Of a stretch of DNA of 64,000 bases, positions 41,714 through 46,661 are shown in pieces. Position 1 is the stretch's first letter, and each line of letters opens with the position of its first letter. A program made the position numbers and the translations under genes. The notes under the pieces were generated by a model, which was not told the origin of the DNA, ran no database searches, and saw only the letters and a list, made by a program, of their open reading frames with translations. The DNA is from an uncultured Planctomycetota bacterium (GTDB lineage: Bacteria; Planctomycetota; PLA2; JAEUHO01). Location of the stretch: positions 96,001-160,000 of the forward strand of contig CAVVXN010000004.1 in the NCBI GenBank assembly GCA_963752285.1, given 5' to 3'.

Positions 41714-42325
41714 TCAGTCGGTGTGGCCCCCGATCCGCGCGCCCGCGGCGCCGGCGGCGGGGGCGCCGGGGCGCTCCGAGCGCGGGACGTAGGACCGAAG
41801 GTAGTCCGACTTGTCCTGGCCCTCGTAGAACGACCCGCCCACCGCGTAGTCCTGCGCCTCCTGGATCGCGCGCTCGGCGTCCCAGCCGTCGTACTCCATC
41901 CGGAAGAGCGCGCAGAGCAGCCCCGTCCGGCCCACGCCGTGCATGCAGTGCACGAGGACGGGGCGGTTCGCCGGGTCGTCCATGATCGCGAGGAAGCGGC
42001 CGATCGTCTCGTCGTCGGGCACCTGGCCCGACGGGAGCTCCACGTAGCGCGCGCCGTGACGTTCGGCGACCGCGCGGTCCGCCGGCACGTCCGTGTGCCG
42101 CATGTTCACGACGGTCTTGATGCCCTTCTCCGTCACCAGCTGATCGAGGCGGTCCTCCGGCAGGGTCGCCGACCGGTAGAGCACGCCCTCGCGTACGGTG
42201 CCGATGCGCCAGAGCACGCGGTCGCGCGCGACGAACGCCACGGTGCCGAGCACGAGGAGGGGAAGGGCGACGGCGACGACGAGACGCAGGGGGGGGCGCC
42301 TCGCGCTGGGGGGCGGCGTGGACAT
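41714..42325 (-). CDS. Membrane-anchored dual-specificity/tyrosine phosphatase family protein
   Basis: N-terminal TM helix; LYRS, GIKTVVN, HCMHGVGRTG (CX5R). Confidence 0.88.
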   Translation of the reverse strand: MSTPPPSARRPPLRLVVAVALPLLVLGTVAFVARDRVLWRIGTVREGVLYRSATLPEDRLDQLVTEKGIKTVVNMRHTDVPADRAVAERHGARYVELPSGQVPDDETIGRFLAIMDDPANRPVLVHCMHGVGRTGLLCALFRMEYDGWDAERAIQEAQDYAVGGSFYEGQDKSDYLRSYVPRSERPGAPAAGAAGARIGGHTD

Positions 42326-42405
42326 GGCCCGAGCATAGCGCCCGGCGGGCGGCGGGGGCGCGGATCCCGCCGGCGCCGTGGCCCCGGCGGGTCCCGCCGG
42401 CCTCG

Positions 42406-45105
42406 TCAGCGTGCCGCCACCCCGGCGGTCGCGGGCGCGACCGGCTCGAATCGTCCCTGGAAGAACCGGAGCTTCTTCGGCTCGTACGTGAACCGGAGTC
42501 CCCGGATCTCGGCGCGGCGCTCGTACACGCGGATGATGCCCTCGGCGACCGCGCGCATGTGGTCGTTCGTGTAGACGCGACGCGGGATGGTCAGGCGCAC
42601 GAGCTCGAGCTGCGGTCGGTAGTTCTCGCCCGTCGAGGGATCGCGGCCCTTCGACACGTTGCCCCGCTCCATCGCGCGCACGCCCGTCTCGACGTAGATC
42701 TCCGCCGCCAGCCGCTGCGCCGGGTACTCGTCCTGGTCCACGTGCGGCAGGAACCGGCGCGCGTCGAGGAAGATCGCGTGCGAGCCCGAGGGCCTGACGA
42801 TCGGCACGCCGGCCTCCTCGAGGAGCTGGCCGAGGAACGCCGTCTGGCGGATCCGCGCGCGGATGTAGCGGTCGTCGAGCATCTCCCGCACGCCCTGGGC
42901 GATCGCCGCGAGGTCGGCCGCGGGCAGCCCGCCGTCGGTGACGTTTCCCTCGTACACGCGGAGCATCTCCTCGGCCTTCGCGGCGAGGGCCGCGTCGTCG
43001 CGGAAGGCGAGGATCCCGCCCATGTTGATGAGGAAGTCCTTCTTGCCCGAGACCGTGCATCCGTCGCCGTAGAGCATCATCTCGCCGAGGATGTCCTTCA
43101 CCGGAACGTTCGCGTACCGCGGGTCGTGGAGCTGGATCATGCACGCGTTCTCGGCGACGCGGGTCGAGTCGAAGTAGACCCGGATCCCGTGGCGCTGACA
43201 GAGCGCGTGGACCTCGCGCATGTTGTCCATGCTGACCGGCTGGCCGCCGGCCATGTTCACGGAGTGCTCGAAGGAGACGTACGCGACGTCGTCCGCGCCG
43301 TGTTCCGCGATCACCCTCTCGAGCTTCTCGAGGTCGATGTCGCCCTTCCACCGGTACGAGCTCTCCGGGTCGTGCGCCTGATCCACGATCACGTCGGCGA
43401 ACACGCCGCCGGCGAGCTCCTGGTGGAGCTTCGTCGTCGTGAAGTACATGTTGCCGGGGACCACCTGGCCCGGCCGGATCGCGATCTGGCTCAGGATGTG
43501 CTCGGCCGCGCGCCCCTGGTGGGTGGGGAGGATGTGCTGGTAGCCGAACACGTCGCGGAGGACCTCGACCAGGTTCCAGTACTCCTCGGTGGCGGAGGAG
43601 GCCGGGCGCGCGCGTTCGTAGGCGGCCCACTGCTCGGTGCTCATCGCCGCGGTGCCCGAGTCGGTCAGGAGGTCGATCGTCACGTCCGCGCTGCGCAGCA
43701 GGAACGTGTTGTAGCCGGCCTTCTCGATCGCGCGGCGCCGCTCGTCGCGCGTGAGGTGGCCGACGTACTCGATGGTGTGGATCAGGAACGGCGAGCAGTC
43801 GAACGTCCACGTGTCGAGGTTCGGGATGATCCACCGGTATCGCATCTGGTCGCGCCAGCGGCACTCGCCGCCGGGCTCGAGCGGGGGGATCCGGTCGCGC
43901 TGGCGGTACAGGTCGATGATCGCGTCGGCGACCTGGTCGAGCTGCGCGTTCGTCATCGCCAGTCGCGGGATCTGCACCGGGAGGATCGCGTCCCGGTCGA
44001 GCATGCCCTGCGCGACCGCGCGCACGCCCGACGTGAGGTAGAGCGCGCAGGAGATCGTGTCCTTCCGGTGCTTCTTCACGTGGGGGAGGAACTGGTCGGC
44101 GAGCAGGTACGCGCCGTCGCAGCCGCGGTCCAGGGGCACGCGGCCGGCGCGCAGGCGCTCCGTGAACCGCTCCGCCTGGTGCATGACCCAGTGCGCCTCG
44201 GCCTCGTTCGTCATCTCCCGGAGGCCGCGGGCGAGCACCTCCATGGTCCGGCCGGCCATCCCGCCGTACGTGTGCAGGCCCTCGTACACCACCACCTCGT
44301 TCATGAATCGCTCGAACGTCGCCTCGTCGTTCGTGGCCAGGAGCGCGCCGACGTTGCTCCGCGCGCACTGCGCGCCGTCTACCTGGAGGACGTCCGCGAG
44401 CGAGGCCATCTCCTTCACGATCTCGGCGACGGTCTGGCCCTGCTGGCCCGCCTCGTGACGTTGCACGTACCAGGCGTTCTCGACGATGCGCGAGCCGTCG
44501 AGGACGAGGGGGAGGCCGTAGCGCCGGGCGAGGGCGCGGGTGGCGCGCAGGTTCTCGATCGAGATCGGGTGGTGCGCATCCGCGAACGTCTCGACGTACA
44601 CGAGCGCGTCCTTGCCGTCCTGGACCTCGTCTTCGAGGCGTAGGAGGTCGATGTTGCCCGTGAACACGGGCTCCCTGCGGTCGCGGATGTCGGGGACGCT
44701 CAGGCCCCGGGGCGTCAAGACGTCCCGGATCACGAGGGCGTTGCTGGGGAACGAGCTCCCCTCGGGCACCATGGTGGCGACCACCAGCTTGATGCAGCCG
44801 AGGAGGTTGTGGGTCGGACAGACGTGCTGGTGGCCGAGCACGTCCGCGACCGCGCTCTCGAGCGCCTCGAAGTTGCGCGCGCCCGCGTACGCCTCGTCGC
44901 CGACGAGGAGCCCCGCGAGCTGCTCCTGGCTCACTGCGCTGCTGCCCCACGACACCATGTCGAAGGTCGTCTGGCGCGGCACCAGGTTCAGCACGTTGAA
45001 CCGGGCGGCGATCAGGTTCTTCTTGCGCTGCTCGACGGACGGGAAGTCCGTGCGGAGGACGGTCTTGATCTTGTGGGGCTCGTGGACCGGCTTCGTGGGG
45101 GCCAT
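42406..45105 (-). CDS. tpl: Tandem-duplicated tyrosine phenol-lyase (beta-eliminating lyase), 899 aa
   Basis: Two full lyase modules. C-half: IDLLTDSGT, HQGRAAE, MYFTTT, SGKKD, MERG, VRLTIPRRVYT, LRFF (TPL-type). N-half: GDEAYAG, YEGLHTYGG. Confidence 0.88.
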   Translation of the reverse strand: MAPTKPVHEPHKIKTVLRTDFPSVEQRKKNLIAARFNVLNLVPRQTTFDMVSWGSSAVSQEQLAGLLVGDEAYAGARNFEALESAVADVLGHQHVCPTHNLLGCIKLVVATMVPEGSSFPSNALVIRDVLTPRGLSVPDIRDRREPVFTGNIDLLRLEDEVQDGKDALVYVETFADAHHPISIENLRATRALARRYGLPLVLDGSRIVENAWYVQRHEAGQQGQTVAEIVKEMASLADVLQVDGAQCARSNVGALLATNDEATFERFMNEVVVYEGLHTYGGMAGRTMEVLARGLREMTNEAEAHWVMHQAERFTERLRAGRVPLDRGCDGAYLLADQFLPHVKKHRKDTISCALYLTSGVRAVAQGMLDRDAILPVQIPRLAMTNAQLDQVADAIIDLYRQRDRIPPLEPGGECRWRDQMRYRWIIPNLDTWTFDCSPFLIHTIEYVGHLTRDERRRAIEKAGYNTFLLRSADVTIDLLTDSGTAAMSTEQWAAYERARPASSATEEYWNLVEVLRDVFGYQHILPTHQGRAAEHILSQIAIRPGQVVPGNMYFTTTKLHQELAGGVFADVIVDQAHDPESSYRWKGDIDLEKLERVIAEHGADDVAYVSFEHSVNMAGGQPVSMDNMREVHALCQRHGIRVYFDSTRVAENACMIQLHDPRYANVPVKDILGEMMLYGDGCTVSGKKDFLINMGGILAFRDDAALAAKAEEMLRVYEGNVTDGGLPAADLAAIAQGVREMLDDRYIRARIRQTAFLGQLLEEAGVPIVRPSGSHAIFLDARRFLPHVDQDEYPAQRLAAEIYVETGVRAMERGNVSKGRDPSTGENYRPQLELVRLTIPRRVYTNDHMRAVAEGIIRVYERRAEIRGLRFTYEPKKLRFFQGRFEPVAPATAGVAAR

Positions 45106-45214
45106 CGTTCACCTCGGCGCGGGAGGAATCGCTACCGAGGCCGAGTGTACGGCTGGCGCGCCCGGCGTCTCCGCGGTGTCGGAGAGGGTCCGGCGCGCGC
45201 CTCCAAAGACGCGT

Positions 45215-45763
45215 CTACCGGTCCCCGCCCTCCTTCTGGAGCCGCTCGATCTGCTTCGCGAGGGCCGCGCCGTGGTGGATCACGTCCACCTGCTCGTCCA
45301 CGTAACGCACGACGCCGTCGGGGTCCACGACGAACGTCACGCGCTTCGCGTATCGGCCTCCGGGGGCCAGCACGCCGTACTTCGTCGCGACGCTCCCGTC
45401 GGCGTCCGAGAGCACGGGATACGCCAGGTGCTGCTCGTCGGCGAACTTCTTCTGGGCGGCGACGTCGTCGAGGCTCACGGCCAGGACCGTCGCGTCGAGC
45501 TTGGTGAGATCGTCCGCTGCGTCCCGCAGCGCGCAGACCTCGCGCGTTCACCCCGGTGTCGAGGCCTTCGGGAAGAACGCGACGATCGTCCACTTCCCGT
45601 GCCCCGCCTCGGAGCGGCGGACGGCGTGGCCCGACGGGTCGTTGAGACGGAAGTCCGGCGCCTGCTGACCCACCTCCGGACCGGTCGCGGCGTCGTCCCC
45701 CGACGCGAGCGCGACCCCCGCGGCGACGACGGCCGCGGCGATGCCCAGTGCCCATCCTCTCAT
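45215..45763 (-). CDS. bcp: Exported BCP/PrxQ-type peroxiredoxin with selenocysteine (in-frame TGA 45548-45550)
   Basis: Two ORFs join in frame across TGA to give FFPKASTPG-U-TREVC (canonical TPGCTxExC); VGQQAPDF, LSD.DG, KRVTFVVDPDG; signal peptide. Confidence 0.85.
45512..45538 (-). promoter_or_regulatory. Putative bacterial SECIS hairpin
   Basis: CGCTGCG-GGA-CGCAGCG stem-loop, loop about 24 nt downstream of the UGA, extended by GTC/GAC. Confidence 0.6.
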
Positions 45764-45821
45764 CGAGAACCCTCCTCGGAGTGGCGAACGGGCCGTATCG
45801 TAGCCGCCGCGGAGGGACCTC

Positions 45822-46661
45822 ATGGCACGCGCGACGACCTCGGTGGGGCTCCTGGTCCTCGGCCTCCTCGCGTCGGCCGCCTCGGCGCGCGCGGACGACG
45901 CGGCGCTCGGGGCGCCGCCGTTCCCCCACGTGCGCGCGGAGGGCTACGTGCGCGTCGGTGCGACCTCGGGTTTCCTCCAGACCCCGAAGGGCGGCCAGCC
46001 CGGAACGACCACCGAGCGCCGCCCGGCGCTCGACGAGATCGGCGCGGACCTCGGCGAGGAGATCGGCGTCCGAGCGGAGACGGCCTGGCGGCGTCACGAG
46101 GTGCACCTGGACCTCGCCCTGCTCCTCCTCGGCGGATCCGACAAGCTCCGCGACGGGTTCGTGTCGCAGGGCGCCACCTTTGGCGCGGGCACGTCGATCG
46201 ACTCGTCGTCCTGGATCGGACGCTACCGCCTCGGCTACGCGTACCGGTTCGACCTCCCGCTCGGCCGGGCGGGCTGTCTCGTCGTGCGCCCCGGCGCGAG
46301 CCTCGAGGGCCTCCACGTGCACGACCGGCTGACGGGCGAGGGCGGCGCGAGCGTGAGGCGCACGTATCTCCACGTCGCCCCCGCGCTCGACCTTCGCGTC
46401 GGATGGCGACCGGCGGCCGTGCCGCGCGTCTTCCTCGAGGCCGGCGCGTCCCAGACGCTGTCGTTCCTCTACTCGGACGCGAGCCGGATGAACACGTTCG
46501 AGTCCACGCTCCGCGTCGGCTGCGACCTCTCGTCGCGTACGAGCCTGTACGTCGAGACGGGGTTTCGCCGGAGCGACTGGCGCGACGCGCAGACGGTACC
46601 GAACCACGTCCACGTGACCTTCGGCCCCTGGTTCGGGGTGGGGTTCACGTACCGATTCTGA
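45822..46661 (+). CDS. Putative outer-membrane beta-barrel protein
   Basis: Signal peptide, alternating beta strands, C-terminal GVGFTYRF (terminal Phe signature). Confidence 0.7.
   Translation: MARATTSVGLLVLGLLASAASARADDAALGAPPFPHVRAEGYVRVGATSGFLQTPKGGQPGTTTERRPALDEIGADLGEEIGVRAETAWRRHEVHLDLALLLLGGSDKLRDGFVSQGATFGAGTSIDSSSWIGRYRLGYAYRFDLPLGRAGCLVVRPGASLEGLHVHDRLTGEGGASVRRTYLHVAPALDLRVGWRPAAVPRVFLEAGASQTLSFLYSDASRMNTFESTLRVGCDLSSRTSLYVETGFRRSDWRDAQTVPNHVHVTFGPWFGVGFTYRF

Follow-up and report, generated by a model that had tools for sequence, protein, structure and literature searches.

Tyrosine phenol-lyase (TPL; EC 4.1.99.2; Citrobacter freundii and Erwinia herbicola, structures 1c7g, 2ez1 and 1tpl) and tryptophanase, or tryptophan indole-lyase (EC 4.1.99.1; 1ax4 and 2oqx), are textbook pyridoxal 5′-phosphate (PLP) enzymes, and TPL is used industrially to produce L-DOPA. 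Four identical subunits of ~456 residues make up the canonical TPL tetramer, which has four equal sites, and every subunit carries the PLP ligand set together with Tyr71, Tyr291 and Glu69, the last of which we take to be the partner-supplied ligand of the activating cation. In TPL, Lys257 is both the Schiff base and the alpha-proton base, Arg381 and Tyr71 act as base and acid in phenol elimination, Thr124 holds the phenol hydroxyl, and Phe448 and Phe449 contact the ring (PMC10170061). Tryptophanase belongs to the same family and splits its site between two subunits in the same way, with Tyr-72* supplied by the other chain of the catalytic dimer (PMC11301627). In the Escherichia coli enzyme, Tyr74 and Tyr307 of one subunit reach over to its neighbour and form hydrogen bonds with the PLP phosphate there, and a Tyr74Phe variant has negligible activity (PMC2770544); given the offset between the two enzymes, by which Phe304 of tryptophanase is Met288 of TPL (PMC5805759), Tyr307 corresponds to TPL Tyr291. 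Five positions tell the two enzymes apart, namely 124, 288, 379, 381 and 448, which are Thr, Met, Met, Arg and Phe in TPL and Asp, Phe, Val, Ile and His in tryptophanase (PMC5805759). Here we describe a gene that encodes two unequal copies of a TPL-like subunit in one polypeptide. It lies on the minus strand at positions 42406..45105 of a 64,000-nucleotide window (the whole stretch of DNA that was analysed; positions 96,001 to 160,000 of contig CAVVXN010000004.1, assembly GCA_963752285.1) from an uncultured Planctomycetota bacterium. From residue mapping and family conservation, we read the product as a probable covalent pseudo-heterodimer of two TPL-type subunits in which each chain has a single working active site, and we put the probability of this reading at about 0.75.

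The gene is a single, uninterrupted, ATG-initiated open reading frame (ORF) of 899 codons plus stop, with a third-codon-position GC content (GC3) of 0.97 and a Shine-Dalgarno-like GAGG at 45112..45115 (−), 6 bases before the ATG. Pfam matched PF01212 (beta-eliminating lyase) in two stretches of the 899-aa product (E 1.1e-99) and no other family. Against the NCBIfam TPL model, TIGR02618, residues 1-449 scored 231 bits and residues 450-899 scored 622.3 bits; the whole protein reaches 856.8 and exceeds the equivalog cut-off of 720.7 only by adding the two stretches. PDB matches of both halves were TPL, tryptophanase and threonine aldolases, and the halves share 27% identity with each other (E 3e-41). 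The protein thus has the fold and PF01212 in common with TPL, as anticipated by the original prediction, which had called it a tandem TPL from the sequence alone; it differs from canonical TPL in being an 899-residue chain of two unequal copies. It divides into an N-half (residues 1-410; 43876..45105, −), a connector in place of the TPL C-terminal strand (residues 411-438; 43792..43875, −) and a C-half (residues 439-899; 42409..43791, −). The connector is conserved at W417, R418, D419, M421, Y423, L430 and F435 (each at ≥90%).

Each half was aligned residue by residue to the solved Erwinia TPL 1c7g, and all residue equivalences given here follow from these alignments; all motif positions lie on the minus strand. 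Conservation was scored in two sets. A protein search limited to 494-1574 residues gave 1,457 matches, the best 120 of which, including the query, form the core family (lengths 782-920 residues, with the other 119 being 67-82% identical to the query and source names that include Acidobacteriota, Gemmatimonadota and Planctomycetota). Separately, 230 proteins of 800-1000 residues were classified, and two domains were found in 228. The C-half aligns to TPL residues 7 to 454 with one single-residue gap (E 1.3e-166) and its TPL-type PLP and substrate site is complete. It keeps Thr49, Gln98-Gly99-Arg100, Phe123-Thr124-Thr125, Asn185, Asp214, Arg217, Ser254, Lys256-Lys257, Met379, Arg381, Arg404 and Phe448-Phe449, so that the motifs TDSGT, HQGR, FTTT, SGKKD, MERG, VRL and RFF are all present. 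The Schiff-base lysine is Lys689, within SGKKD (residues 686-690; 43036..43050). The TPL-specific residues Thr124, Arg381 and Phe448-Phe449 correspond to Thr556 (43438..43440), Arg814 (42664..42666) and Phe881-Phe882 (42460..42465), and these positions are Thr in 218/228 C-halves, Arg in 215/228, and Phe in 216/228 and 215/228, respectively. The specificity pocket is therefore made up of Thr556, Met812, Arg814 and Phe881 from the C-half, TPL-type where tryptophanase has its own set, and of Leu277 from the N-half at position 288. Leucine at position 288 is also found in P0135, a canonical TPL with 733 bits on TIGR02618, above the equivalog cut-off, and in the nearest single-domain TPLs. Every residue of this kind that the original prediction had assigned to the C-half, including the equivalents of Thr124, Arg381 and Phe448, was recovered in the alignment, and so were the two losses that it had named. 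The one-time GDEAYAG loop reads ARPASSA (residues 499-505; 43591..43611), with Tyr71 replaced by Ser503 and Glu69 by Pro501, and the one-time YGG loop reads TDGG (residues 723-726; 42928..42939), with Tyr291 replaced by Asp724. The tyrosine of the first loop is retained in only 11/228 C-halves; at the Tyr291 position, 185/228 have Asp and 2/228 have Tyr.

The N-half aligns to 1c7g with E 3.1e-56 and has the opposite content: a TPL-like fold stripped of its cofactor and substrate residues, with the loops that serve a partner subunit kept. TDSG has become S-WGS (residues 52-55), and the phosphate-binding loop THQGR has degenerated to THNLL (residues 98-102; 44800..44814), with HNLL at 99-102 and NLL in place of QGR. 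The FTTT segment is deleted, with Phe123 gone, as is the segment bearing Asn185. SGKKD is replaced by DGAQC (residues 243-247), in which Asp stands for Ser254 and Gln246 (44368..44370) for the Schiff-base Lys257; position 246 is Gln in 118/120 core homologues, and Lys occurs there in only 15/228 N-halves. MERG reads VAQG (Arg381 to Gln366) and VRL reads LPV (Arg404 to Pro376), and the N-half also lacks the 13-residue loop preceding Arg404 and the C-terminal strand bearing Phe448 and Phe449. All six motif losses proposed for this half are thus reproduced against the solved structure. So are the two retained loops. GDEAYAG (residues 69-75; 44881..44901) contains Tyr73 and Glu71, the equivalents of TPL Tyr71 and Glu69, and YEGLHTYGG (residues 274-282) contains the second partner-subunit loop, EGLHTYGG (residues 275-282; 44260..44283), with Tyr280 equivalent to TPL Tyr291. 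Tyr73 and Glu71 are invariant in 120/120 core homologues, and residues G69-A74 in 56/56 sequences of a broader alignment; EGLHTYGG is identical to the corresponding loop of P0135.

Since a canonical TPL site consists of the cis residues of one subunit and the two tyrosine loops of its partner, a site built from the cis residues of the C-half and the trans residues of the N-half is complete, and by the same logic a site built from the cis residues of the N-half and the trans residues of the C-half is dismantled on both sides. In the proposed scheme, the C-half (439-899) would supply Lys689, the Gln-Gly-Arg phosphate loop, Asn617, Asp646, Arg649 and Arg837, along with the TPL-type pocket of Thr556, Met812, Arg814 and Phe881/882, and the N-half (1-410) would lend Tyr73 as general acid, Glu71 and Tyr280 across the interface. 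It is predicted that the two halves come together as in a catalytic dimer, whether in the same chain or across a pair of chains, that each chain binds one PLP, and that a dimer of chains imitates the TPL tetramer. The likely reaction, judged from the pocket residues, is PLP-dependent beta-elimination with tyrosine as substrate (L-tyrosine to phenol, pyruvate and ammonium). Once fusion broke the symmetry, the symmetry-related second site may have decayed as a unit; with the pocket of the N-half dead, those C-half residues that had served it would be free to drift. The composite site and the dead pocket put forward in the original prediction are strongly supported by the residue mapping and family conservation, and the reciprocal loss is real. 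Its reading of that loss as complementary subfunctionalisation fares less well: the best reading is that reciprocity is the expected outcome of the decay of one whole composite site, which predicts the same pattern, and two complementary subfunctionalisations need not be invoked.

Within the core family of 120, Tyr73, Glu71 and Tyr280 of the N-half and Lys689 of the C-half are all invariant, and eleven further full-length tandem clusters, down to 37% identity, were present in the representative library. In a 56-sequence alignment that takes in these clusters and reaches down to 36% identity, 13 of the 24 invariant N-half columns fall within the two tyrosine loops. The pattern of reciprocal loss, anticipated for homologues of about 900 residues, was found in full in 212 of the 228 tandem proteins and not in the other 16. 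Lys257, Gln-Gly-Arg, Asp214 and Arg404 are kept in the C-half of 228/228, and Tyr71, Glu69 and Tyr291 in the N-half of 225/228, 226/228 and 226/228, respectively. At the level of genomes, an intact two-domain frame with the pattern was found in 60/77 loci of species-representative genomes from at least 8 phyla: Acidobacteriota (26), Pseudomonadota (8), Myxococcota (7), Planctomycetota (6), Gemmatimonadota (5), Eisenbacteria (5), Bacteroidota (1), Chloroflexota (1) and one locus with no assigned phylum. The other 17 comprise 4 truncated tandems and 13 loci without a two-domain frame, most of which end at contig edges and 5 of which are ordinary single-domain TPLs. Recurrence in 212/228 homologues and 60/77 loci argues that the pattern is due neither to chance nor to assembly.

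Several observations weigh against the one-site pseudo-heterodimer or restrict its reach. The 228 tandem proteins were taken as the top matches to two queries and are no random sample, and the 77 loci are likewise best hits. The pattern is also not universal, so it would be false to say that all homologues share it. Nine of the 228 (P0133, P0138 and P0271-P0277; mostly cyanobacterial by source name) keep both Lys and Tyr in both halves, combined with a non-TPL pocket (Val or Leu at 381, Ala at 448), and may be two-site forms with another substrate; the source names for three of these are Pantanalinema, Stenomitos and one unclassified bacterium. Four of the 228 keep the N-half Lys yet have lost the C-half Tyr, one is an odd or partial sequence, and two (P0279 and P0280, the former from a Chroococcales cyanobacterium by source name) have the opposite polarity: their N-halves hold a full cofactor set with Tyr71Phe and Tyr291Cys, and their C-halves keep both tyrosines with Asn185Thr and Arg217His. 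These exceptions are consistent with a composite site that decays as a unit in either polarity. Two further points concern the query itself. The C-half on its own (622.3 bits) lies below the TIGR02618 cut-off, as does the N-half, and the N-half has not lost everything: an addition to the residue list first drawn up is that it retains Asp203 and Arg206, the equivalents of Asp214 and Arg217 (kept in 221/228 and 197/228 tandem homologues), and in the 120-member core conservation reaches ≥95% at 9 of the 13 positions of the dead pocket, compared with 38% of N-half columns overall, so the dead pocket may not be functionless.

The trees place the two halves differently. C-halves of the main class form a clade (SH-aLRT (Shimodaira-Hasegawa-like approximate likelihood ratio test) 96-99) inside the TPL-like group, beside P0135. 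N-halves form a clade of their own (SH-aLRT 98) with branches 2-3 times longer than those of the C-halves, and its internal branching mirrors that of the C-half clade, which points to one fusion followed by co-divergence. In the free tree, the N-halves fall outside all single-domain enzymes; a tree in which N- and C-halves were constrained as one clade was not rejected (delta log-likelihood 4.58, approximately unbiased test P = 0.45). Internal duplication, assumed in the original prediction, is therefore a possible origin, compatible with these data. Compared with P0135, the N-half shows 31% identity and the C-half 54%, and only 5/38 twelve-residue windows are closer to P0135 in the N-half than in the C-half: the N-terminal arm, positions 61-84, 229-240 and 289-300 (0.92 versus 0.33). 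Within the core family, identity is 60-81% for the N-half and 72-84% for the C-half. Nei-Gojobori ratios of nonsynonymous to synonymous substitution rates against the two closest orthologues are 0.26-0.27 for the N-half and 0.21-0.24 for the C-half, both values probably being inflated by strong codon bias. Both halves are under purifying selection, which indicates that the N-half is maintained and not decaying.

How the halves pair bears on what the chain can be called. In the glycine decarboxylase P-protein and in fused serine palmitoyltransferase, pairing occurs within the chain, as the single-chain catalytic dimer would require here. The D2 symmetry of the TPL/tryptophanase tetramer nevertheless permits both topologies: the catalytic N:C interface could form between two chains, with the halves of one chain pairing across a non-catalytic interface. 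The short, conserved connector favours this arrangement, and so do the N-terminal arms, which both halves have kept and from which E. coli tryptophanase builds its non-catalytic interface (PMC2770544). We consider pairing between chains unlikely, though it carries real weight and none of the present results contradicts it directly; there would still be one site per N:C pair, and the protein would not be a single-chain catalytic dimer. A role for the N-half as folding or dimerisation scaffold only, with catalytically dispensable tyrosine loops, is far harder to sustain. TPL-family subunits need a partner in order to fold into the catalytic dimer, so an inert partner might suffice, but the tyrosine loops hold the 13 invariant columns counted above and are the only long stretches in which the N-half beats the C-half in closeness to canonical TPL, and the negligible activity of the E. 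coli tryptophanase Tyr-to-Phe variant at the equivalent position (PMC2770544) speaks against dispensability; we regard a pure scaffold as very improbable. That the gene is an artefact, whether a frameshift merging adjacent genes or an assembly chimera, is barely credible given the uninterrupted frame with its GC3 of 0.97 and the same fused frame in the 60/77 loci from independent genomes and in 5/40 relatives.

The remaining alternatives touch on function. The dismantled N-half pocket could have taken on a new role, binding a regulator or PLP non-covalently and making the enzyme allosteric, which is compatible with one working site per chain. The high conservation of pocket-equivalent positions and the retention of Asp203 and Arg206, whose TPL equivalents are ligands of PLP N1 and O3′, fit such a role, as does a suggestion made for glycine decarboxylase, that its N-terminal fold with the Gln has a non-covalent PLP role (PMC7259800). 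Yet the 7- and 13-residue loops of the pocket are gone along with Phe123, Asn185, Arg381 and Arg404; Leu101, Val364 and Gln366 vary freely in the core family; deeper-branching tandem members have different replacements at the N-half pocket positions; and the conservation could be purely structural. On balance, a new pocket role seems improbable, if worth keeping in mind. A beta-eliminating lyase whose physiological substrate is something other than tyrosine is a doubtful but serious option. In its favour, the C-half by itself falls short of the TPL cut-off, and position 288 is Leu where TPL has Met; phenol hydroxylase PF02332 had no match in the genome, although the control likewise matched nowhere, and the gene neighbourhood gives no pathway hint. 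The other four of the five positions that separate TPL from tryptophanase are TPL-type (Thr, Met, Arg and Phe; PMC5805759), the same Leu occurs in P0135 and the nearest single-domain TPLs, and the C-half clade lies inside the TPL-like group, which together favour tyrosine.

The genomic surroundings of the gene vary. Its neighbours in the window are a peroxiredoxin gene upstream, a dual-specificity phosphatase-like gene downstream and an aldehyde dehydrogenase gene on the other strand, and none points to a conserved operon, as these neighbours occur beside the lyase gene in 0-1 of 77 loci. Scans around the lyase gene for promoters and terminators gave nothing useful, and Rfam and tRNA scans of the window gave 0 matches. 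An Lrp/AsnC-family regulator, which would suit an amino-acid catabolic gene, immediately precedes the tandem lyase in divergent orientation in 12/41 long loci (L013:5391-5894 and 11 more) and is absent beside the gene in the window. The product of the downstream gene (41714-42364, −), which starts ~40 bases past the lyase stop, is 216 aa long, has a hydrophobic segment at its N terminus and contains a dual-specificity/tyrosine-phosphatase-like domain (HCxxGxGR); this membrane-anchored phosphatase-like gene is not conserved beside the lyase elsewhere. The same genome also encodes a threonine aldolase and a single-domain tryptophanase-like enzyme (G000:C5:246021-247145, −; L079) with GDESYAG, SAKKD and TYGG all intact, which groups in the tree with tryptophanase-like enzymes, apart from the tandem family.

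Directly upstream of the lyase, at 45215-45823 (−), is an AhpC/TSA (BCP-type) peroxiredoxin gene with one in-frame TGA. The TGA falls exactly at the peroxidatic cysteine position (TPG-TGA-T, aligned to the Cys of TPGCT in 5epf), and the genome has selB (317 bits) and a tRNA-Sec (70 bits). Among 11 matched peroxiredoxin places in relatives, including the source genome, a single in-frame TGA is present in 7 and lacking in 4. Taken from the reading frame and these genes, the product is probably a selenocysteine peroxiredoxin; the hairpin that follows the TGA does not exceed shuffled sequence in stability, and Rfam found no selenocysteine insertion sequence (SECIS) model there. A TGA-bearing peroxiredoxin gene again lies directly upstream of a tandem lyase in a relative of another genus (G009:C11:137437-140696; L090 and L093). 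Elsewhere the pairing was found in only 1/77 loci (L035).

N-half-like sequence (≥547 bits) was found in 5/40 relatives, always in frame with a C-half, and in 4/401 sampled genomes of the phylum including the source genome, all of one family. This rarity within the phylum, together with the spread across many phyla, suggests horizontal transfer. Free-standing N-half genes were sought among 820 matches at E ≤ 1e-60 to proteins of 240-765 residues, and none was established: the best N-half-like matches (at least ~40% identity) are mostly labelled partial, on short contigs or broken mid-domain. Of the candidates, P0131 is a tandem cut short and the P0243 sequence seems to contain a frameshift; only P0389 (409 aa, spanning residues 8-410) may be a free N-half. 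The ESM Atlas returned only single-domain TPL/tryptophanase clusters and has no structure of the 899-aa protein. We note that in two Gammaproteobacteria loci from metagenome-assembled genomes (L053 and L075), two complete single-domain genes are adjacent, one tryptophanase-type (Asp124, Phe288, Ile381 and His448) and one TPL-type, and that in L053 an out-of-frame read-through of the two gives a false 959-aa frame that mimics a fusion. TPL/tryptophanase-like domains also occur inside two very large proteins, P0165 (3002 aa) and P0178 (1552 aa), which are presumably assembly-line enzymes of the kind discussed in PMC3870968.

The tandem form is widespread in uncultured bacteria, and automatic annotation labels it 'tryptophanase' or 'tyrosine phenol-lyase' with its architecture unmentioned. 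It lets nature show which residues really work across the subunit interface, it gives access to asymmetric or half-of-sites PLP catalysis with no need for mixed dimers, and it is a scaffold whose two 'subunits' can be engineered independently. The graded series from two sites to one, in either polarity, also shows how fusion may permit the decay of one symmetric site. Speculatively, and with low confidence, the family could be a multi-stage record of the passage from a symmetric two-site enzyme to an obligate asymmetric one after fusion, with the dead pocket possibly regulatory. The stages would then be the cyanobacterial members with both sites, the few with one element lost, the two with losses in the opposite site and the main clade with the process complete; the dead pocket of the main clade would be under a constraint of its own, possibly as a regulatory ligand site, and the P-protein-type architecture would have arisen a second time among fold-type I PLP enzymes, independently and in a system open to experiment, with what was once an active site turned into an allosteric pocket.

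The tandem protein departs from its closest relatives in how the site is distributed over the chain. Where canonical TPL has Tyr71 and Tyr291 in every subunit, here they are found in the N-half only (Tyr73 and Tyr280), with Ser503 and Asp724 in the C-half, and where canonical TPL has the PLP ligand set in every subunit, here it is complete in the C-half and broken in the N-half. Neither a tandem nor a fused TPL or tryptophanase is described in the full-text literature searched, with subscription journals and supplements outside the search, and in a 2023 review of TPL the words 'tandem' and 'fused' carry other meanings only. The statement in the original prediction that it knew of no characterised example therefore holds for this family within the literature searched; it does not hold for fold type I as a whole, in which the P-protein and fused serine palmitoyltransferase are precedents. 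A looser parallel is the trypanosomatid S-adenosylmethionine decarboxylase (AdoMetDC) prozyme, a dead paralogue needed for an active enzyme (PMC6221367). That system has separate polypeptides and an unrelated fold, and its prozyme is an activator and not a lender of named catalytic residues. Serine palmitoyltransferase, which differs in family and reaction and is membrane-associated and eukaryotic or viral, pairs an active subunit with a paralogue, LCB1, without the PLP lysine. LCB1 and LCB2 form a fold-type I heterodimer and are fused into one gene in most Emiliania huxleyi virus (EhV) coccolithoviruses (PMC5371807). The nearest architectural match is the glycine decarboxylase P-protein (GLDC/GcvP), described in PMC7259800 as a single chain, or in some prokaryotes an alpha-beta pair, whose two fold-type I halves are homologous; its N-terminal half has Gln for Lys and its C-terminal half binds PLP. 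Both the order of the halves and the Lys-to-Gln replacement match the 899-aa protein, which shares with this class two homologous fold-type I halves, one of them without the lysine (Gln246 versus Lys689). The P-protein nevertheless belongs to another family within the fold type, with another chemistry and an H-protein partner. Common descent with GLDC or serine palmitoyltransferase found no support, as only PF01212 and the TPL/tryptophanase models matched, which argues that the likeness to both is one of convergent architecture. On these sequence comparisons, the tandem TPL is an independent, convergent origin of the single-chain layout in another fold-type I family, and an arrangement for which GLDC has been called an unusual exception among fold-type I enzymes (PMC7259800) would have arisen at least once more.

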